Source: a virus. Taken from it: a DNA stretch of 28,473 bases. How positions within the stretch are numbered: the first letter of the stretch is position 1; the number at the start of each line of letters is the position of its first letter. The position numbers and the translations under genes are program-made. The stretch is taken from UHGV virus genome UHGV-0135791; one strand, given 5' to 3'. The notes below the pieces were generated by a model. That model had not been told where the DNA came from and searched no databases. It saw only the letters and a program-made list of their open reading frames with translations. Shown here piece after piece: positions 2,287 through 20,620 of this stretch.

Positions 2287-2595
2287 TTGGATAAATTTAC
2301 TGAAACAGTAACGGGGTGGCTTCTCGCTGCCGCTCTGGCTGGTGGGGTCATCGGACTACGACAACATAAGTCCGTTATTTCTGGCCCTATCGACGGATTC
2401 TGCTTTATCGCAACCGGCTTCACCTGCGCCGTATTTGGCGCACCTCTCGCAGCTCAATGGTTTGGTATCACGGGCGACCGTGAAATCGCTGGCCTGGGCT
2501 TTATCATCGCTGTTCTCTGGATGCCTATCTATTCCCGTCTCTCCGGTATCGTCGCCGGAGAATACATCGCACGTCGAGGGGGTACAGATGAATGA
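2287..2595 (+). CDS. holin (putative, three predicted TMDs), TTG start
   Basis: 102 aa with three hydrophobic segments and a charged C-terminus; immediately upstream of the endolysin; no in-frame ATG near the 5' end. Confidence 0.6.
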   Translation: MDKFTETVTGWLLAAALAGGVIGLRQHKSVISGPIDGFCFIATGFTCAVFGAPLAAQWFGITGDREIAGLGFIIAVLWMPIYSRLSGIVAGEYIARRGGTDE

Positions 2596-2860
2596 GTTAT
2601 TCTGGTTCGGTGGTATGCTGGCAATCGGAGGCACATCGCTGTTTAATGTATACCATCCCAGCGTTGACGACGGGTTATTTGGTCGCGTGCTCTATATCCT
2701 GACCGCTATCATCTGCGCTGCCGGTTGTATCCACCTGTTACAAGGCAGCATGTCACCAACGTTGCCTGAGACATTAATCACATTAGTTGCGCTGCGCCAG
2801 ATTCGCCAGGCGTGGCTGTCATACGGAGGATACAAGCGTGTCTCGAAATATTTCAGATAA
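2588..2860 (+). CDS. second lysis-cassette membrane protein (holin or antiholin-like), 90 aa
   Basis: ATG 2588 overlaps the holin stop; two hydrophobic helices; ends 22 nt into the endolysin gene. Confidence 0.5.
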   Translation: MNELFWFGGMLAIGGTSLFNVYHPSVDDGLFGRVLYILTAIICAAGCIHLLQGSMSPTLPETLITLVALRQIRQAWLSYGGYKRVSKYFR

Positions 2861-3326
2861 TGGATTGCATTTCACCGCCGCGTTCGAGGGGTTCCGAGGA
2901 ACTGCATATCGTGCTACTCCGAACGAGAAGTACCTGACTATTGGCTACGGGCATTACGGGCCAGACGTAACCCCAGGTAAGACCATCACACCAGGACAGG
3001 GCTTGTTGTTACTGAATCGCGATATGGCTAAGGCCGTAGCTGCGGTTGACGCAGCAGCCCACCATTCTCTCACGCAGGCACAGTTCGACGCTGTGTGCGA
3101 CCTGGTGTATAACGCAGGTGCTGGCGTGATTGCGGCTACTACAGGCACGGGTGAGGCGCTGCGCTCCGGCGATGTTGCGACGCTGCGTGCCAAGCTGGCG
3201 CTGTTCATCAACCAGAACGGCAAACCGCTCCTCGGCCTGCGTCGCCGCACGGCTGGTCGCCTGGCGCTGTTCGACGGTAAACCGTGGCAAGAGGCAGAGG
3301 CTATTGGGCGCGCGGTGAAAGGTTGA
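2838..3326 (+). CDS. endolysin, GH24 (T4/P22 gp19-type) lysozyme
   Basis: GTG start 7 nt after ACGGAGGA; translation has the P22 gp19-like pattern (ISDNG..., IGYGH, QAQFDAVCDLVYNAG, LGLRRRTAGRLALF), matched from memory. Confidence 0.8.
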   Translation: MSRNISDNGLHFTAAFEGFRGTAYRATPNEKYLTIGYGHYGPDVTPGKTITPGQGLLLLNRDMAKAVAAVDAAAHHSLTQAQFDAVCDLVYNAGAGVIAATTGTGEALRSGDVATLRAKLALFINQNGKPLLGLRRRTAGRLALFDGKPWQEAEAIGRAVKG

Positions 3327-3392
3327 CACATAAGACTAATCCGACGATACTTAAATCACCTCCTGCTTCATCCCTCTACTCTCCAGTTTTAT

Positions 3393-3424
3393 CCCGGCCC
3401 TGACCCAGCCGGGATTTTTTTTTT
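3393..3424 (+). terminator. rho-independent terminator
   Basis: CCCGGC (3393-3398) / GCCGGG (3408-3413) stem followed by a 10-T run. Confidence 0.75.
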
Positions 3425-3446
3425 ATCTATTTTCTGCAATGACTAG

Positions 3447-3475
3447 TTGACTATTACATTCGACCCTACTATATT
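3447..3475 (+). promoter_or_regulatory. sigma70-like promoter, TTGACT-N17-TATATT
   Basis: -35 TTGACT 3447-3452, 17-nt spacer, -10 TATATT 3470-3475; sits just after the terminator and before a run of small genes. Confidence 0.5.
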
Positions 3476-3582
3476 TACTCCATCGACAACGAGAACGGAG
3501 TAGAGAAGATGAGTAACTTCCATAATGGGCATGTGATGCAGTTCTACCGCCATAATCTGAAAACTAAAGGAGTGTTTGGAAA

Positions 3583-3732
3583 ATGAAAATCACAGATAAA
3601 GAAGCATTCGAAGACGCGCAACTGATGGCACGCATCGCCGTTAGCAACCTTGGCGGAAGCATTCCTGCGGATTCGTTCTGGGCGGCAGCGATGAAGGCAC
3701 TGAAAGAAGCTTATGCAGGAGAGAAGAAATGA
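3583..3732 (+). CDS. small hypothetical protein, 49 aa
   Basis: AAGGAG upstream of ATG 3583; below track cutoff. Confidence 0.4.
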
Positions 3733-3887
3733 GCGAACAAGGCCCGGTAAGCCAGCCATTACGAGTAGGCCGTAAAGTCAGCCACACCCCGTTCCCGCCA
3801 CGCGAGGAACTGTTGAAACGTAACAGTTTCCCCGGGCCGGACAGGAACAAGTATCTCAATCGCATGTGGGGAGAGCGTAAAGAATGA
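3729..3887 (+). CDS. small hypothetical protein, 52 aa
   Basis: ATGA overlap with upstream gene; AGGAGAG RBS; below track cutoff. Confidence 0.4.
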   Translation: MSEQGPVSQPLRVGRKVSHTPFPPREELLKRNSFPGPDRNKYLNRMWGERKE

Positions 3888-4108
3888 CTGACCGCGACTA
3901 CGAAAAGATGATGGTAGAGGCCGTTAACGGCGGCGTAGACATTAGCCACGTTATGCACGTCCTGAATACTAAAATAGCGGTAGCCGAGCAAATGGTTGAG
4001 TCGCTTTACGAGACACGCCGTGAACTGATTAACCGCTTCAACCTGAACAAGGGTGGCACCAATGCCATCGACGCCGGCAAAATCTCAGGCGTGAAGCTGG
4101 AGGATTAA
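3884..4108 (+). CDS. hypothetical protein, 74 aa
   Basis: Track ORF; ATGA overlap with upstream gene; GGAGAG RBS. Confidence 0.55.
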   Translation: MTDRDYEKMMVEAVNGGVDISHVMHVLNTKIAVAEQMVESLYETRRELINRFNLNKGGTNAIDAGKISGVKLED

Positions 4109-4113
4109 CAAAA

Positions 4114-4413
4114 ATGAGTAGTAGCACATTAGATAAAATTGAAAAAATGCAGGTCATCCTGCGAAATATGAAATCAGACATTAAGCGGCAGGACAGGTTG
4201 AATTCAATAAACGGAATGGAACTAACTACAAAGCAAGCGCAGAAGCGCAATGCAGAATCGGCATGGATAGCAATGGAACAGATTAAGCGTCGCCATGAAT
4301 TGCATGCCCTGTCTGTTGAGTTGGGATTTGCGGAACGAAGGGATGATTATAGCGCAATAGAGTTAACTGACGGATGGCATTGCTTTACCTACAAACCAAG
4401 AGAGCCAGATTGA
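4114..4413 (+). CDS. hypothetical protein, 99 aa
   Basis: Track ORF; GGAGGA 8 nt upstream of ATG. Confidence 0.6.
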   Translation: MSSSTLDKIEKMQVILRNMKSDIKRQDRLNSINGMELTTKQAQKRNAESAWIAMEQIKRRHELHALSVELGFAERRDDYSAIELTDGWHCFTYKPREPD

Positions 4414-8803: not shown

Positions 8804-9847
8804 ATGAGCTTACTTACATCTCTGATCAGCCATCAGATATGGCTACAACGCACCGCATCCGGTGAAGTGAAAGACCTTGCGCCGTTCATTCAGGAGATGC
8901 GCGACGAAATCAAACGACAGGTGCTGTTGTTCGGCGACGACGGGAGAAGCACCGCGCGACTGAATAAACTGTTACGCGACCTCGAAGAAGCACTGACAGG
9001 GCTTACTGGTGGCTGGCAAACGAAGCTGACAGAAGACCTTAAGGAGCTGGCGGCGTATGAGGCTGAGTGGAATGTGAAGACACTCACGGCTAACGTTAAT
9101 GCGGAATTTGTCACTCCGACCGCTGAGCAGGTGTGGTCTGCCGCAGTGTTTCAACCGCTGGCGTTAAGCGACAAGCCCGTTGATTTCACGAAGCTGATGG
9201 AAGGCTGGGGCGAAACAGAAGTTGCTCGCCTTGTAACCGGCGTTAAGATGGGTTTCGTACAAGGACAAACCACACGGCAGATTGCTAAGAATGTGGTGGG
9301 TGCTGGTGGGCTGGCTGACATCTCTGAACGCAACGCCGCTACGGTAATCCGCACTGCATTATCCCATGTATCGAACGAAGCCCGTAACGAGACGTACCGC
9401 CAGAACGATGACATCATCGAGAAATACGAATGGGTATCAACGCTGGACAGCCGTACCAGCACGATTTGCAGAGCCAGAGACGGAATGACGTGGGAAATCG
9501 GTAAAGGGCCAATGCCTCCAGCCCATCCGAATTGTAGGTCGTGTACAGCGCCCGTAATCAGTTCAGAGTTCGACTTCCTCGATAAAGGAGCGAAACGTGC
9601 AGCTAAGGGCGCGGACGGCGGTACTCAGGTAAGCGCAGACACCACCTACTACGAGTTCCTGAAACAACAACCGGCATGGTTTCAGGATGAAGCACTCGGT
9701 CCTGTTCGCGGTAAGATTTTCCGCAACAGCGGTATATCGCCGGAAGAGTTTCGCGTAATATCTGTAGATGGTTTCGGGAATCCGCTCACGCTTAAGCAGA
9801 TGGCGGAACTCGATAAACGTGTTGCTGATTATCTGAAAGGGGAATAA
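8804..9847 (+). CDS. head morphogenesis protein, Mu F / SPP1 gp7-like
   Basis: Motif TSTICRARDGMTWEIGKGPMPPAHPNCRSC typical of the Mu F-like minor head protein family; start may be 8771 or 8804 in the same frame. Confidence 0.75.
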   Translation: MSLLTSLISHQIWLQRTASGEVKDLAPFIQEMRDEIKRQVLLFGDDGRSTARLNKLLRDLEEALTGLTGGWQTKLTEDLKELAAYEAEWNVKTLTANVNAEFVTPTAEQVWSAAVFQPLALSDKPVDFTKLMEGWGETEVARLVTGVKMGFVQGQTTRQIAKNVVGAGGLADISERNAATVIRTALSHVSNEARNETYRQNDDIIEKYEWVSTLDSRTSTICRARDGMTWEIGKGPMPPAHPNCRSCTAPVISSEFDFLDKGAKRAAKGADGGTQVSADTTYYEFLKQQPAWFQDEALGPVRGKIFRNSGISPEEFRVISVDGFGNPLTLKQMAELDKRVADYLKGE

Positions 9848-10161
9848 TGATGGGCTTTTTCAAAGTAACTGATGTGCCGTCGCGTCGCGTAGTCCAGTAC
9901 GCCCGCGTGTCTGGCTCTGACGAGAACGTGGTGTTTATCGAAGATGAAAGTGTACTTGGTACACCTGTAGACGATATGCCGTTTGCGTATAAAACCGGTA
10001 TTGCGCTACCGGCGGCGGGTATGCTTTACGAGATTCCGTATCTGGCGGACGCTGGTGATGTGTATTTCTCTGCACAACCGCAGAACACCGAACTGGCAGA
10101 CGGCAGCGCAACTATCACTGTCGAGGTTAAGGCAGGCAAAGCGCCGTATACTCTGACCTAG
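9847..10161 (+). CDS. Ig-like-domain protein, truncated by an in-frame amber codon
   Basis: ATG 9847 after AAAGGGGA; ORF ends at TAG 10159-10161 inside an Ig-like fold (APYTLT*YKDGKEV). Confidence 0.6.
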   Translation: MMGFFKVTDVPSRRVVQYARVSGSDENVVFIEDESVLGTPVDDMPFAYKTGIALPAAGMLYEIPYLADAGDVYFSAQPQNTELADGSATITVEVKAGKAPYTLT

Positions 10162-10308
10162 TACAAAGACGGTAAGGAAGTGGTAAATGCCCCGGAAGAG
10201 GCTCTATCTCTGACGGTTAATGCTGTTGGCGAATACTTCGTTAAAGTCACCGATGCCGATGGTGTAGAGGCCGTGAGTAAAGCGGCGAAGGTCACTAAGC
10301 CAGAATGA
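10162..10308 (+). other. in-frame continuation after the amber codon, completing the Ig-like domain
   Basis: Same frame stays open 48 codons (YKDGKEVVNAPEEALSLTVNAVGEYFVKVTDADGVEAVSKAAKVTKPE) to TGA-TAA at 10306-10311. Confidence 0.55.
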
Positions 10309-10311
10309 TAA

Positions 10312-10342
10312 AAGGCCCCGTTATGGGGCCTTAGTTTTATTT
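10312..10342. terminator. bidirectional rho-independent terminator
   Basis: AAGGCCCC-GTTAT-GGGGCCTT hairpin with T-rich flanks on both strands, between convergent genes. Confidence 0.7.
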
Positions 10343-10858
10343 AAATCGCGCTGGCATTAGCACCATAAATGCAGTGTTTGAAAACGATATTTTGCATCCT
10401 CTGGTTTGGTCCTGGAAATCGAAACGAGCAATTTCATTTTTGTACGCCTTAGAAATCTTGTGCGCGTCTGCCAAGTAGGGCATGGCGAATCCTATGCTAT
10501 CAACTGCCCCCGGCGTGATGTGCGCCACACGTCGCCAGTCAGGAAATTTTCCGTCTACAACATCCACCGGAAGTGTACATATAAGCGCACAACTATCATC
10601 ATAGAAAGAAACACTGCTGATGTCATGGTCTACTTCCGCGTAGTTAAATTTAGAAGGCTCTCTCCCTTTTATGTCTATGAGAACCCCATTCTCAACGTTT
10701 GTCTTAACGTTGTCGCAGAACAATCTACGACCGTCCGTAGACACTATCAATCCTTCCGGGTCTATGTAAAAAGCATTAAAATAATAGCGCACATCATTTT
10801 TAGCTCTGCATATTTTTGCCCCTATATACGCAGGGAAAGTAATTACTGTAGTAACCAT
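10337..10858 (-). CDS. truncated DnaN (beta sliding clamp) homolog, domain II-like, 173 aa
   Basis: Segments [38 protein letters not shown] and C-terminal [11 protein letters not shown] parallel E. coli DnaN [45 protein letters not shown] and AAYVVMPMRL (from memory). Own promoter, GAGGAGGAG RBS, terminator; AT-rich relative to flanks. Confidence 0.55.
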   Translation of the reverse strand: [173 protein letters not shown]

Positions 10859-10886
10859 TTTAACTCCTCCTCGTTTCGATAACTGA

Positions 10887-10915
10887 ATAGTACCCTATTA
10901 TGTTGGTGTCTGCAA
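10887..10915 (-). promoter_or_regulatory. leftward sigma70-like promoter, TTGCAG-N17-TACTAT
   Basis: Read on the minus strand: TTGCAG acaccaacataataggg TACTAT tca; -10 region identical to promoters at 119-147 and 19703-19731. Confidence 0.5.
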
Positions 10916-10969
10916 ACTATTTGTTTACGTATTCCAGTTATTCCGCTCAATTGTAAATGTTGGAATAAA

Positions 10970-10981
10970 CTATTCGAATAG
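10970..10981. promoter_or_regulatory. perfect 12-bp palindrome CTATTCGAATAG, candidate operator
   Basis: Abuts the -35 of a rightward promoter-like site; half-site GAATAG/CTATTC also occurs within the conserved promoter block. Confidence 0.35.
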
Positions 10982-11010
10982 TTGACTTTTCACTAAAAAT
11001 ATGCTAAGCT
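10982..11010 (+). promoter_or_regulatory. possible rightward promoter, TTGACT-N17-TAAGCT
   Basis: Good -35 but weak -10. Confidence 0.3.
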
Positions 11011-11234
11011 CCACCTGAGCTTGTGAAGTATGAACAAGCGACCGCGGCGCGGGCAGGTAACGGAGCGGGACGTAAGTCCTGAGTGTAGTTACGCTGACGC
11101 GTTCGGAAGGGCCATACTCTATTGCTTGTGTAAAAAGTAACTGGTTTACTGAGATTACGCCGTTTCTATGTTTAAATGATAAGAACTAGCGCCCCGCTTT
11201 ATGGCGGGGCTTTACTTATCGAGAAAGGAGAAAC

Positions 11235-11621
11235 ATGAATCTTAAAGCAACTGTCGTAGCAGGAGCATGTTTCATCATCCTGGCCTACGCACACGGCATC
11301 TATCAGTATCGCAGCGGCTGGAACGAAGGCCGGGAGAATCTCGTTTCGCAGCAACAGCAGAAAGCGCAGGCTGAGTTAGCGAAGAAAACACAACGGCAGC
11401 AGCAGGAAGAATCAAAGGCCGCCGCTGCTGACAACGAAGGCAAGACGAAATCAGAGGTGATTACCCGTGAAGTCGTTAAGTACATTAAAACGCCTGGTCG
11501 CAGCGTGTGCACTTTTGACCCTGAGCGCGTGCAGCTCAAGTCCCGCGCCGTCGCAAACGCCAATTCCATCCCCGGATATGACGATGATGCAGCCGCCGTG
11601 CAAACTGGCGCCGCCAAGTAA
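11235..11621 (+). CDS. Rz: i-spanin (Rz-like)
   Basis: N-terminal TMD (VVAGACFIILAYAHGIY) followed by a Gln/Ala/Lys-rich periplasmic region; strong RBS AAAGGAGA; contains the start of an overlapping lipoprotein gene. Confidence 0.7.
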   Translation: MNLKATVVAGACFIILAYAHGIYQYRSGWNEGRENLVSQQQQKAQAELAKKTQRQQQEESKAAAADNEGKTKSEVITREVVKYIKTPGRSVCTFDPERVQLKSRAVANANSIPGYDDDAAAVQTGAAK

Positions 11622-11730
11622 CGACGCCGACGGGGATTTGGCTATCGACGTTCAGAATGCAGAATGTGCGCGGCAACTGAGACTGAAAGTGTTCATGTTG
11701 CAGGATTATGTGAGGAATATTCTGGAATAG
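11467..11730 (+). CDS. Rz1: o-spanin (Rz1-like outer membrane lipoprotein)
   Basis: GTG start after GAGGTGA, in the +1 frame inside Rz; signal peptide with lipobox LSAC; Pro-rich mature region; extends 109 nt past the Rz stop. Confidence 0.65.
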   Translation: MKSLSTLKRLVAACALLTLSACSSSPAPSQTPIPSPDMTMMQPPCKLAPPSNDADGDLAIDVQNAECARQLRLKVFMLQDYVRNILE

Positions 11731-11812
11731 TTGCCTTGCAGGTTGGAATAATTTATTCTTGACATGTAAATCCGGGTGGCCCGGGTTCCAACGTCCAGGG
11801 GACATACTGACT

Positions 11813-12514
11813 ATGAATCGTTTTTTACGTTATCCGTTCCAGGAAGAAGCTGGGGCAGAAGATAAAGCTGGCGGCGGTGACGCGCCGAAAATGTACACAG
11901 CTGAAGAAGTGCGGGCGCTGATTGAGAAAGAAGTTGCCGGGCTTAAGGCCAATCAGGAAGCATTGCTGGCGGAGAAGAAAGAAGCCGCCCGCAAAGCAAA
12001 AGAGGCCGAAGAAGAACGACAGCGCGCACACCAGGAGGCGTTAAAAGCCGCCGGTAAGATGGACGAGTTCGAAAAGACGATTCGTAGCCAGTATGACCCG
12101 GTGTTAGCCGAGAAAGATGGTCGCATCTCCAGAATGGCAGAGCGCATCCTCGGCAGCGAACGTAAAGCGGTGTTAGGCTCTTTCGCGGGTGACTTTATTA
12201 CCCCGGAAGCAGTAGACATTCTTGCTCCGTTCGTTAAGACTGAGTTCGAAGGTGATGATGTGGTTACTAAGTTTGTCGGCGCAGACGGTAACGTAATCAC
12301 GACTGACCCGGAACAGTTCCGCAAATACCTGCGCGAACACAAAGCGTTTTCGCATTTGATTAAAGCAAATGCAGCTTCCGGCGGCGGGGCTTCCGGTGGC
12401 AAAGGCGGCGGGGCCGCACCAGCGTTTAAAGACATGAGTGAAGCGGAGCGTTTAGCTCTGTACAAATCGAACCCTGCCGAATTTGAACGGCAACTTAAAG
12501 CCCTGAGGAAATAA
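11813..12514 (+). CDS. scaffolding protein (putative)
   Basis: Ala/Glu/Lys-rich, helix-prone, about 234 aa, immediately upstream of the major capsid gene; start could also be 11759 or 11894. Confidence 0.65.
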   Translation: MNRFLRYPFQEEAGAEDKAGGGDAPKMYTAEEVRALIEKEVAGLKANQEALLAEKKEAARKAKEAEEERQRAHQEALKAAGKMDEFEKTIRSQYDPVLAEKDGRISRMAERILGSERKAVLGSFAGDFITPEAVDILAPFVKTEFEGDDVVTKFVGADGNVITTDPEQFRKYLREHKAFSHLIKANAASGGGASGGKGGGAAPAFKDMSEAERLALYKSNPAEFERQLKALRK

Positions 12515-12516
12515 TA

Positions 12517-13560
12517 ATGGCAATTACCACTATCGGCGATATCGTAACTGGCAACATCCCGGTCCTGGCGTCTTACATGACCGAGGACCCGGTGGAAAAA
12601 ACCGCGTTCTTCCAGTCCGGCATTCTGACCCCGACCCCGTACGCTGCCGAGATTGCTCGCGGCCCGTCCAACATCGCCAACATCCCTTTCTGGAAAGCGA
12701 TTGATACATCTATCGAGCCGAACTACTCGAACGATGTATACCAGGATATCGCCACCCCGCGTAACGTTCAGACCGGTGAGATGATGGCGCGCGTTGCGTA
12801 CCTGAACGAAGGTTTTGGCCAGGCCGACCTTACCGTCGAACTGACCAGCCAGAACCCGCTGCAATCCGTGGCTTCCCGTCTGGATAACTTCTGGCAGCGC
12901 CAGGCACAACGCCGTCTGATTGCTACTGCGCTCGGTCTGTACAACGACAACGTAGCCGCTACCGATGAATACCATACGCAGAACGATATGGTTGTCGACG
13001 TGTCTGCTTCTCTGGGCTTCGACGCAGGCGCATTCATCGACGCTACCCAGACTATGGGCGATGCTCTGATGGGCAACGGTGGCGAGGTGCTGGGTGCTAT
13101 CGCTATGCACAGCTTCGTTTATGCGCAGGCGCGTAAGCAGCAGCTTATTGACTTCATCAAAGACGCTGACAACGACACCTTGTTCGCCACCTACCAGGGC
13201 TACCGTGTGATTGTTGACGACAGCATGACCGTAGTCGGCTCCGGCGGCAGCCGCAAGTTCATCTCCATCATCTTCGGCAACGGCGCTATCGGTTACGGTG
13301 AAGGCAACCCGTCCAACCCGCTGGAATACGAGCGCGAAGCGTCTCGCGGTAATGGTGGTGGTGTAGAAACCCTGTGGTCCCGTAAGACCTGGCTGCTGCA
13401 CCCACTGGGCTACAGCTTCACCAGCGCGGTAATCACCGGCAACGGCACCGAGACTGTCGCACGTTCTGCGTCCTGGCAGGACCTGGCGAACGCCTCCAAC
13501 TGGAGCCGTGTGGTTGAGCGTAAGCATGTACCGATTGCCTTCCTGGTAACTGGTGCTTAA
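12517..13560 (+). CDS. major capsid protein (putative)
   Basis: 347 aa after the scaffold; RBS GAGGAAA; followed by a strong terminator, as expected for a highly expressed structural gene. Confidence 0.75.
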   Translation: MAITTIGDIVTGNIPVLASYMTEDPVEKTAFFQSGILTPTPYAAEIARGPSNIANIPFWKAIDTSIEPNYSNDVYQDIATPRNVQTGEMMARVAYLNEGFGQADLTVELTSQNPLQSVASRLDNFWQRQAQRRLIATALGLYNDNVAATDEYHTQNDMVVDVSASLGFDAGAFIDATQTMGDALMGNGGEVLGAIAMHSFVYAQARKQQLIDFIKDADNDTLFATYQGYRVIVDDSMTVVGSGGSRKFISIIFGNGAIGYGEGNPSNPLEYEREASRGNGGGVETLWSRKTWLLHPLGYSFTSAVITGNGTETVARSASWQDLANASNWSRVVERKHVPIAFLVTGA

Positions 13561-13576
13561 GGTTAATATATAATCG

Positions 13577-13604
13577 AGAGGGACTTCGGTCCCTCTTTTC
13601 ATTT
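13577..13604 (+). terminator. rho-independent terminator after capsid gene
   Basis: AGAGGGAC-TTCG-GTCCCTCT hairpin followed by TTTCATTT. Confidence 0.75.
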
Positions 13605-18085: not shown

Positions 18086-18314
18086 ACTCATCAATATTAC
18101 TCCTGTACTCCCGTAACTTCTCCAGGCTTTCGATTGCTTCTGCCAAGTCGGTTCCCGTGTCTTTGTGCCCGCGAAGGCCCATACACAATAGCTTCTTCAA
18201 CGCGTGCTGTAGCGCAGGGTCGCGTATATCGAAGGCGCGGAGAACATCGTAAACGTCTACTGTCATAGTGCTGCCGTGAATGTTTGTCATTGTGCGGTTG
18301 TATTTTGAAGTCAT
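18084..18314 (-). CDS. DUF3310-like small phage protein, 76 aa
   Basis: Motif PALQHALKKLLCMGLRGHKD...DLAEAIESLEKL matches the A.KYL.R.G.K...DL.KA..YL pattern recalled for DUF3310. Confidence 0.5.
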   Translation of the reverse strand: MTSKYNRTMTNIHGSTMTVDVYDVLRAFDIRDPALQHALKKLLCMGLRGHKDTGTDLAEAIESLEKLREYRSNIDE

Positions 18315-19441
18315 CCCAGCATCTCCGGTGAAATAGTTAAACGTGCGACCTCGCCGTATTCAGCGCTATAAGTAATTACGTTTGCACTACGGCCTGACAT
18401 CCATCCGCCGCGCGAGGCGTAGGCGTCTTTAGCCGCTAAGGTGCGGTGTTGCTCAACAACCATGTTACGGCTTTCTACAATCTTCTGGTGGTGCAGGTGA
18501 CCCACGTGGGCATAACTGTAGACACTCTCGCCGAACGCTTTACGGAACTTGGCAATCATTACTGGCTCAATAGCGTCGAATCGTGCTTTATGCCCGTGAT
18601 GGAAGAACAGTGTCGTTTTGCCGTGTTGCACCATCTTGTAAACATCCGGTGACGTATCGACAATCACTCGGCTGTCGTTTGAGTATAAAGTCGTGAACAT
18701 TTCCGCCAGCCATACAGACCCTACAGGGTCGTGGTTCCCCTGCACGATAAGCAAGCGAACGGTTTTATGTTTAACCAGCGCCATATCTACAACACGGCGG
18801 ACCATACGAATCATGTAGCGTACAAGTTTCTGATAGCGCGTGTCAGCGTCCAACACATGACGTGACTCAGGTGTAACCGCGTCCAGACTATCGAAGTGTG
18901 CGAAGTCGCCCAGCAGGTTAATAACTCCTGTCCCGGCATCCGGTGCTTTCTGGAATGCCGCATCGAACCAGCGGGAGAACAGGTCTTCCGCAATCTTCAT
19001 GTCCCAGTCGTCGCCGCTCTCGTCGGCCCATGCCAGCATACCGAGATGGAAATCGGATACCGTGTAAAGATTGAGTAGCTTGTCGTCGCGTTTAGCGCGA
19101 ACGGCTTTAACAGGTGCAACGGGTGTAATCTCTGACCTCATGCCTTCGATTACGGCTTTCATCAACTCTATCTGACGTTCGGCGTCAGTATCGGTCTTAA
19201 CCCATTGCAACTTAGTGTTGCCGAACTCGTCCACAAGTGACGACGTGCCTTTAATTTTGTAGCCGTCCGGGACAAGGTGGCTAACGTCGCGCCCGTGGCC
19301 TACGCCTTTCTTAGCCAGCTTCGCTTTACGGATGCGAATAACGCGGTCTGAGATGCCATATTTACGGGCTATATCGATAGTTTTAACTCCGGCGTTCAAT
19401 TCTTCCTGTAACTGTTCGTCGGTTATTTTCTTCCCGGCCAT
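18311..19441 (-). CDS. N-terminal HTH domain fused to a calcineurin/Mre11-like metallophosphoesterase, 376 aa
   Basis: HTH-like LNAGVKTIDIARKYGISDRVIRIRK; phosphoesterase motifs VSDFHLG, LLGDFAHFD, QGNHD, FHHGH and HVGHLHH in canonical order. Confidence 0.75.
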   Translation of the reverse strand: MAGKKITDEQLQEELNAGVKTIDIARKYGISDRVIRIRKAKLAKKGVGHGRDVSHLVPDGYKIKGTSSLVDEFGNTKLQWVKTDTDAERQIELMKAVIEGMRSEITPVAPVKAVRAKRDDKLLNLYTVSDFHLGMLAWADESGDDWDMKIAEDLFSRWFDAAFQKAPDAGTGVINLLGDFAHFDSLDAVTPESRHVLDADTRYQKLVRYMIRMVRRVVDMALVKHKTVRLLIVQGNHDPVGSVWLAEMFTTLYSNDSRVIVDTSPDVYKMVQHGKTTLFFHHGHKARFDAIEPVMIAKFRKAFGESVYSYAHVGHLHHQKIVESRNMVVEQHRTLAAKDAYASRGGWMSGRSANVITYSAEYGEVARLTISPEMLG

Positions 19442-20287: not shown

Positions 20288-20620
20288 GTGGATAAGCATA
20301 AAATCAGAGAGTTTGATTCTATAGCTGACGGACACGAACAGGCGCTTATCGCAATGGGTGTAATCGATAAGAAAAAACGTGCAGCGCGACGGGGTGGGCC
20401 AGAATGCCCACCCCTTTTTATATCCACCTTTGAGACGTATTGCGACATTAAGTTTACGCGACACGTGCGCGAGGACGCTGTAGTATTGTTTGCAAGAGAA
20501 TCCGTTACGTGGCAAGACCTGAAAGCCTATCTCGATGTTACGCAAAAGCAGCTTAGCCTGTTCGAGATAGACATTATCATGGGCTTAGAAGCAATCTTTG
20601 AAGGTAGAAATCATGGCTGA
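20288..20620 (+). CDS. tail assembly chaperone T-like segment, probably made as a G-T fusion by -1 frameshift
   Basis: Track ORF (GTG start, no clear RBS) lies in the -1 frame relative to the G-like gene and overlaps the TMP start. Confidence 0.4.
   Translation: MDKHKIREFDSIADGHEQALIAMGVIDKKKRAARRGGPECPPLFISTFETYCDIKFTRHVREDAVVLFARESVTWQDLKAYLDVTQKQLSLFEIDIIMGLEAIFEGRNHG

Follow-up and report, generated by a model that had tools for sequence, protein, structure and literature searches.

A truncated beta-clamp homologue with conserved pocket residues in a cargo-swappable cassette of a Kagunavirus genome

What use could a phage have for part of a sliding clamp? The question is raised by the viral genome UHGV-0135791, of which the whole stretch of 28,473 nucleotides (hereafter the window; one strand, written 5' to 3') was analysed. 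On the minus strand, an open reading frame (ORF) that begins with ATG and occupies 10337..10858, stop codon included, encodes a protein of 173 amino acids (aa). A preliminary description made from the sequence had correctly placed the gene at these coordinates and on this strand, and had taken its product for a truncated homologue of the bacterial beta sliding clamp, DnaN, that might titrate clamp-binding proteins or else cap or poison the clamp of the host. What is new here is that the most conserved positions of the protein family line the pocket in which E. coli beta receives clamp-binding motifs, that the gene is subject to purifying selection, and that it is the cargo of a self-contained cassette.

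The part of the clamp that is retained

Compared by phmmer with the sequences of the PDB, the protein matched the E. coli beta clamp at E-values of 2.9e-4 to 1e-3, residues 16-116 of the query being aligned with beta 144-252 and a weaker stretch, residues 116-171, with beta 311-365; the three motif similarities to DnaN that had been noticed by eye were all recovered in this alignment. A profile of 62 family sequences scored 103.5 bits against E. coli DnaN, the comparison sequence having been verified as identical to PDB 1MMI, and hhalign gave a probability of 99.6% (E 2.8e-24). The AlphaFold2 model built on the family alignment is a compact fold predicted with very high confidence (pLDDT 95.9, pTM 0.91). 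Its best Foldseek matches in the PDB were all E. coli beta (E 1.2e-8), and every one of its structural neighbours was a clamp. The profile and structure comparisons that the preliminary description had proposed as checks thus came out in its favour, and sequence, profile and predicted fold agree in supporting a truncated DnaN homologue that comprises domain II and the C-terminal strand and lacks domain I.

With 173 aa against the 366 aa of E. coli DnaN (P0A988; PDB 1MMI and 2POL; Pfam PF02767/PF02768), the fragment is 27% identical to it over 158 residues and shares the pocket-lining motifs DVRYY.N, TDGHR, FPD.RRV, Y.. and MP.R. The dnaN equivalog model TIGR00663 scored 12.6 bits, failing its cut-off of 137.65, and a Pfam scan of the 173-aa protein, PF00712, PF02767, PF02768 and RusA included, returned zero matches at E-values up to 10; PF02767 is passed by more typical members of the family.

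All alignments were confined to beta 136-298 and 313-366, and domain I was never covered. Instead of the three domains of a beta clamp, the model contains one full domain and a single beta-alpha-beta-beta-beta unit. The secondary structure of the full domain corresponds one-to-one to that of domain II of beta (beta1-alpha1-beta2-4-beta5-[ ]-beta6-8); the model has no counterpart of the second inner helix (beta ~197-208), the place of which is taken by a 9-residue loop, KGREPSKFN. The additional unit comes after a conserved connector, and its profile alignments are ambiguous, the first domain III repeat (beta 253-298) and the second (313-366) fitting equally well. Domain III of beta has two pseudo-repeats, and one of them would have been lost through a deletion of about 60 residues. 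The retained half is probably the sheet and helix that abut domain II, the far half being gone, because two elements that in beta help to form the pocket, the C-terminal MPxR strand and the start of the IG.N..Y helix, are still present. The absence of domain I noted in the preliminary description therefore stands, while its statement that most of domain III is missing went too far: about half remains, as one beta-alpha-beta3 unit.

At the interface of the native beta dimer, domain I of one protomer meets the far half of the partner's domain III, and the beta mutant I272A/L273A is monomeric. One structural match of the model, PDB 3pwe, carries the R103C-I305C cross-link pair of this interface. 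With domain I absent and only half of domain III present, the clamp fragment appears to have lost the ring-closing interface; it is plausible that it cannot form a ring alone, and a function as a sliding clamp, like that of E. coli DnaN, is not to be expected. The missing inner helix of the model and an isoelectric point (pI) of 6.8 would likewise argue against a DNA-encircling or strongly DNA-binding role of this copy.

The loss of the interface bears directly on the proposal that the fragment joins host beta through the ring interface and thereby blocks dimerisation or holds rings open. This is a true clamp-fold protein, and pairing of its free sheet edges with the free edge of an opened clamp is conceivable in principle; phage attack on the clamp is known, Gp168 of Staphylococcus phage Twort having been found bound to beta (PDB 7evp). 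However, the parts that make the native interface, as marked by I272A/L273A and R103C-I305C, are both missing: domain I is absent from every alignment, and the one half of domain III that is kept is, to judge from the retention of the pocket, the half next to domain II. In addition, conservation in the family is centred on the pocket, not on the sheet edges. Capping or poisoning of the host clamp is for these reasons disfavoured and strikes us as improbable, whereas the other suggestion of the preliminary description, titration of clamp-binding proteins, gains from the finding that the pocket is the most conserved part. Twort Gp168 and phage G1 gp240 are unrelated small proteins that bind the host clamp, whereas the fragment copies part of the clamp and would act on the clients of the clamp.

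The pocket of beta is a hydrophobic cleft between domains II and III that takes up the clamp-binding motifs, of QL[S/D]LF type, of partners such as polymerases, the delta subunit of the clamp loader, MutS/MutL, Hda and RecB, among others. In a first set of 120 family members, collected by means of shared 5-residue words and with a median pairwise identity of 30%, the positions conserved in at least 85% of members were D22, R24, Y25, Y26, N28, T41, G43, H44, D102, G103, P106, R110, Y128, L129, M168, P169 and R171, equivalent, in the same order, to beta D150, R152, Y153, Y154, N156, T172, G174, H175, D238, G239, P242, R246, Y323, V324, M362, P363 and R365. Peptides and inhibitors bound to beta contact R152, T172, G174, H175, P242, R246, V247, M362, P363 and R365 (PMC11703123, PMC3335792). 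The ten positions equivalent to these contacts carry 4.0 bits, against 1.9 bits elsewhere in the protein (Mann-Whitney p 2.5e-7). A second set, consisting of 135 cluster representatives at no more than 50% identity gathered by an index-free HMMER search, repeated the result (p 1e-7), and the seven most conserved positions in it were all pocket residues. The copy in the window retains most of the pocket residues and has substitutions at four. Two lysines of the retained helix, K134 and K137, show moderate conservation.

Relative to two orthologues the gene has a dN/dS of 0.10-0.14; it is under purifying selection and functional. We conclude with moderate confidence that selection in the family acts on the client-binding pocket and not on ring formation or the encirclement of DNA.

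An expression cassette with exchangeable cargo

The window derives from a siphophage of the genus Kagunavirus (Guernseyvirinae). Its segment 9800-11700 shares 93% identity with Escherichia phage vB_EcoS_fFiEco03 and has matches in 310 phage records; the gene itself, at a nucleotide identity of at least 88%, was found in only 22. As had been stated at the outset, the gene is AT-rich, its GC content being 43% compared with 51.6% for the window, and its direction is opposite to that of the structural operon, which on the plus strand has terminase, portal, a MuF-like head protein and an Ig-like decoration gene upstream of it and spanins, scaffold and the major capsid protein downstream.

Directly in front of the gene lies a 72-bp leader (10859..10930, minus strand) that, as seen from homology with phage fBC-Eco01, moves with it. 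The leader contains a conserved -10-like element, CATAAT, at 10902-10897 and the Shine-Dalgarno sequence GGAGGAG at 10870-10864, five bases 5' of the ATG. A consensus scan of 10859..10930 for sigma-70 promoters revealed no strong site, and a promoter in the leader is no more than plausible. On the other side of the gene, a terminator scan detected a GC-rich hairpin at 10312..10332 with a stem of 8-9 pairs and a T-rich tail on each strand, which can be read as an intrinsic terminator in both directions; it lies where the Hoc-like decoration gene and the clamp-fragment gene converge, and it bounds the cassette on the 3' side. Of the promoter and terminator that the preliminary description had assigned to the gene, the terminator is thus borne out and the promoter is putative.

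Homology with fBC-Eco01 (88.6%) extends over leader, coding sequence (CDS) and hairpin, that is, over window positions 10930..10310, and in that phage the cassette is located between portal and MuF, not between the decoration gene and the spanins. Matches in three pieces suggest that phages 26, SHAK7693, Shashou and Sciku share the arrangement of fBC-Eco01. The CDS can also be replaced within the cassette, since a segment on the minus strand, 10339..10855, is unmatched in the Kagunaviruses Bas70, Bas74 and KMB35 (73% coverage in these three records). In the blastn comparison with Bas70, window positions 9602..10338 and 10856..11700 match and the segment between them does not: the flanks are 92-95% identical up to the start and stop codons, and the CDS has been exchanged for an unrelated ORF. 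This ORF (839-1042 of the Bas70 locus, minus strand) has the same leader and terminator and encodes 67 aa with a pI of 4.5 and 14 Asp and Glu residues. Proteins of this kind, small and acidic, often turn out to be host-interference factors when encoded in such slots. None of the Kagunavirus isolates of the BASEL collection carries the clamp-fragment gene, so that no correlation with their defence-sensitivity phenotypes was possible.

The gene is accordingly accessory within Kagunavirus, and sequence comparison identifies it as the exchangeable cargo of a self-contained expression cassette. In its own leader and terminator, low GC content (43% vs 52%), alternative site in fBC-Eco01 and replacement by another ORF in sister phages such as Bas70, the cassette resembles the morons of phages, its promoter being putative. 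Unlike a moron, the clamp-fragment gene is kept in a comparable slot across distant genera. A reverse-strand position in the head module is found again in Jerseyvirus, Dhillonvirus and the Burkholderia Naesvirus, which argues that the gene is old and not a recent acquisition.

Several further features of the window were recorded around the cassette. In the neighbouring Hoc-like Ig-domain decoration gene (9847-10308, plus strand), an in-frame TAG at 10159-10161, a codon that is TGG (Trp) in fFiEco03, Ivi and Bas70, divides the 153-aa protein into a 104-aa product and a 42-aa downstream ORF; possible explanations are a sequencing error, readthrough at this codon, or a nonsense mutation in a decoration protein that the phage can do without. 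Beyond the leader, a non-coding stretch of about 260 bp (10931-11218) is 95% conserved with Bas70, where a 36-aa ORF is annotated in it. Its plus strand has a promoter-like TTGACT (10982-10987), a 17-nt spacer with TG and TAAGCT (11005-11010), and a strong hairpin terminator at 11191-11210 closes it just before the i-spanin start. A search of 10931-11190 for known RNAs gave no tRNAs, no credible Rfam match (wcaG, E 0.58) and a fold z-score of -1.95; the stretch could be a small RNA or a leader. Opposite the scaffold and major capsid genes, a 549-aa antisense ORF at 11953-13602 (minus strand) was called, probably spuriously; Salmonella phage SaI_NFG_5579 has a similar antisense ORF (2462-4294 of its locus), which is entered as a 610-aa 'hypothetical protein'. 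A second reverse-strand island, at 18311-19441 in the tail module, encodes, by synteny with fFiEco03, a 376-aa DP1/Mre11-like metallophosphoesterase adjoining a superinfection-immunity gene; the metallophosphoesterase fold is shared with the Bxb1 gp47 replication/RDF protein (PMC11795197).

Possible roles: decoy, tether or transcription platform

We tentatively favour, while holding it to be somewhat less than probable, the reading that the product is a ring-incompetent, 'pocket-only' mini-clamp, which binds clamp-binding motifs off the ring and competes with the host ring as a decoy. As domain II with the adjoining half of domain III, the protein would be the cleft-forming part of beta. Produced from a leader-CDS-terminator cassette of its own, on the other strand from the head genes, it would bind clamp-binding motifs in solution, off DNA, and would compete with the host ring for its clients. 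The likely benefit would be that host replication, repair or degradation enzymes are uncoupled from the host clamp during infection. Candidate clients are Pol III alpha, delta, mismatch-repair proteins and RecB, whose nuclease activity and DNA degradation depend on a pocket-binding QVEMEF motif (2025 preprint). Peptide binding by the pocket, the identity of the clients and the competitive effect are what we infer.

For the Kagunavirus copy, our leaning towards a decoy comes from its pI of 6.8, from the possession by the phage of a PolA replisome of its own, from the accessory and swappable nature of the gene and from the small acidic protein that is its alternative cargo. The occurrence of the same fold inside large polyvalent proteins (an LPD29 fusion and a match in BFVD) also speaks for a mini-clamp module.

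Several points weigh against the decoy. This copy departs from the family consensus at R44 (H175), F27 (L155), A125 (N320) and A170 (M364), its closest relatives retaining H and L at positions 44 and 27. The first family set, gathered by words, is biased towards these very motifs, a bias that the second set lessens and does not eliminate; and as the same motifs are the most conserved in cellular DnaN, their conservation may in part reflect folding of the domain II-III junction. Homologues in Skatevirus belong to phages that have no annotated polymerase and presumably depend on host Pol III, so that a general Pol III decoy would hurt them. A homologue in a replication operon of a Salmonella prophage suits a positive role as well as a decoy, and the raised median pI of the family (7.7 vs 5.2 for beta) hints at DNA binding in many members.

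These last points lead to the main rival of the decoy, a positive role in phage replication, in which the fragment would be a non-ring tether or adaptor with one face bound to DNA or to a replisome protein and the pocket recruiting a client without a clamp loader. The client could be host Pol III, Pol I or ligase, or the phage PolA, and the protein would then resemble the herpesvirus factors UL42/UL44. The genomic contexts of the homologues speak in its favour. In the Salmonella prophage the homologue comes first after a CI-like repressor and leads an operon with a DUF2800 nuclease, an Enc34-type SSB and PolA, while other homologues lie in early regions, among small ORFs near Prim-Pol/DUF5906 primase-helicases, and one in a Pseudomonas island adjoins an NdpA-like protein. 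Homologues are found both in phages with their own PolA and in phages without an annotated polymerase, and their presence in Skatevirus, presumably served by host Pol III, fits recruitment of that enzyme. A tether is also consistent with the raised median pI of the family, since high pI in clamp homologues without loaders has been tied to direct binding of DNA (Kazlauskas and Venclovas 2011), and with the moderate conservation of K134 and K137 on the retained helix.

Against a tether stands the negative outcome of a search for phage partners with a clamp-binding motif. All ORFs of the window, of complete Kagunavirus and Skatevirus genomes and of eight partial loci were scanned with the patterns Q[LIVM]x[LIVM]F and Q[LIVM]x[LIVM]x[LF], and no conserved clamp-binding motif was found in them; nor was one present at the termini of PolA, the helicases, the SSB-like protein, the DUF2800 nuclease, the primase-helicase and the metallophosphoesterase. 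The scan picked out an exact QLSLF at 20549-20563 (ORF 20288-20620, plus strand), in the frameshift arm of the tail assembly chaperone; as a partner motif it is probably due to chance, the 93%-identical fFiEco03 having QNIGMF there. Gp17 of Burkholderia phage Bcep781 (7523-9610 of its locus) also contains an internal QLSLF. Common tails of another kind, short and acidic, were seen at the C termini of replication proteins: the DUF2800 nuclease and the primase-helicase of fFiEco03 (30987-32261 and 33895-36162) both end in an acidic ...EEDLE, and the DUF2800 nuclease and Enc34-type SSB of the Salmonella prophage (10205-11506 and 11521-12069) in ...D(A)LI, which recall the polymerase-docking tails of T7 gp4/gp2.5. 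All-against-all BLASTP across seven genomic contexts yielded no conserved neighbour gene that could serve as a partner.

Further evidence against a tether is that the gene is dispensable in Kagunavirus and absent from most relatives that have the same replication module, that it lies at a distance from the replication genes in virulent phages, and that this copy, with its pI of 6.8, lacks one inner helix in the model. The herpesvirus proteins UL42, UL44, BMRF1 and PF-8 consist of two complete domains, bind DNA by a strongly basic face and serve a cognate polymerase as essential partners, in contrast to the clamp fragment, the gene of which is accessory and for which no motif was found in a polymerase tail. 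Taken together, we regard a tether as rather unlikely, although of all rivals it is the one to be reckoned with.

The position of the gene among late genes in several genera raises one more role, in which the fragment would be the clamp-like platform by which a phage activator is linked to late or middle transcription. Gp45 of phage T4 works with gp33/gp55 in transcription. A precedent for use of the host pocket exists in phage Mu, where MuC employs it in late transcription (PMC12867686), and in Skatevirus the homologue lies next to the coat genes, in a reverse-strand island that also contains a 'putative transcriptional regulator'. Both precedents, however, require a ring loaded on DNA, no regulator is conserved as a partner, and the gene is accessory in the genus, whereas late transcription is essential; we therefore rate this role as very unlikely. 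A part in a defence system was also considered and dropped, as the PADLOC defence-protein models gave no family at E-values up to 1 for the clamp fragment.

The family, its labels and its significance

The homology as such is not new, for the gene belongs to a recognised and publicly annotated family; literature searches for a functional study of it returned annotations and one survey, of 2011. In that survey, five of 12 phage polIII-beta homologues were short (Kazlauskas and Venclovas 2011). The clamp fragment is a member of this group of short phage homologues, represented by PHROG 3007 (E 7.3e-36, protein residues 14-172 on profile positions 13-186 of 190) and by Bcep781 gp15 (tblastn, 28% identity over 97% of the clamp-fragment protein). 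It shares with them a truncated architecture of 170-250 aa that starts in domain II and ends in the MPxR strand, the Guernseyvirinae form, with 169-173 aa, lying at the short end of this range. The literature on these proteins notes their existence only; conservation of the pocket, loss of half of domain III and the behaviour of the cassette do not appear in the papers searched.

The family is large and widely distributed. Its profile found at least 4672 clusters at 90% identity. A library of 1.8 billion proteins yielded 26,077 representatives at E-values up to 1e-3, full-length DnaN being counted among them; of the best 150 matches, nearly all have 170-250 aa. By tblastn, members were detected in 222 phage records from Salmonella, Escherichia, Klebsiella, Proteus, Burkholderia, Vibrio and other hosts, and the models that match in BFVD, of which those of 178-196 aa superpose at TM 0.81-0.87, belong to phages of Proteobacteria, Actinobacteria and Firmicutes. 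A few members are fused to other sequences, namely to an LPD29 'large polyvalent protein' domain or a C-terminal coiled-coil-like tail, or lie within a 1394-aa polyvalent protein. Large polyvalent proteins of mobile elements have been linked to the early phase of invasion (Iyer et al. 2017), in a paper that makes no mention of clamps.

The near-identical genes in the 22 GenBank records are mostly annotated as 'DNA polymerase III sliding clamp', and the paper on the fBC-Eco01 genome describes the gene simply as a processivity clamp. Other labels on relatives are 'DNA polymerase III beta subunit' and 'beta clamp domain-containing protein', and Bcep781 gp15 is entered as a 'DNA Pol III b subunit fragment'. 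PHROG 3007 and 12598, by contrast, are labelled 'RusA-like Holliday junction resolvase', and annotations of the Pharokka style copy the label. Together with the truncation, the AT-richness and some non-consensus pocket residues of this copy, the label would speak for either a resolvase or a decaying relic of a captured dnaN gene, devoid of present function. A dN/dS of about 0.1, a compact fold predicted with confidence and thousands of homologues with the same truncated architecture count against a relic. As for a resolvase, there is no Pfam match, RusA included, at E-values up to 10 and every structural neighbour is a clamp, so that we consider the RusA label an annotation error. Relic and resolvase are both unlikely, to the point of being hardly credible, and the transcriptional role discussed above is also unlikely.

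To the existing annotations our analysis adds the pocket-only reading with its statistics, a mobile cassette with swappable cargo, and two corrections. The label 'DNA polymerase III sliding clamp' is misleading, as these genes are not expected to encode one, and 'RusA-like resolvase', which has spread from PHROG 3007, should not be used.

The pocket of beta is the hub through which about a dozen enzymes of replication, repair and recombination gain access to DNA, and it is an antibiotic target. It is conceivable, although doubtful at present, that phages of many bacterial phyla carry, in a hot-swappable cassette, a soluble monomeric copy of this pocket that strips proteins with clamp-binding motifs from the host ring. 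If so, its clients could include RecB, MutS/MutL and the core or clamp loader of Pol III, perhaps also defence or transposition factors that depend on the clamp, and the decoy would represent a previously unrecognised class of host-takeover or counter-defence proteins. A family of thousands would in that case form a natural and evolvable competitor of the entire clamp interactome, one that could be used as a tool to probe which clients matter in infection and might offer a template for inhibitors directed at the clamp.

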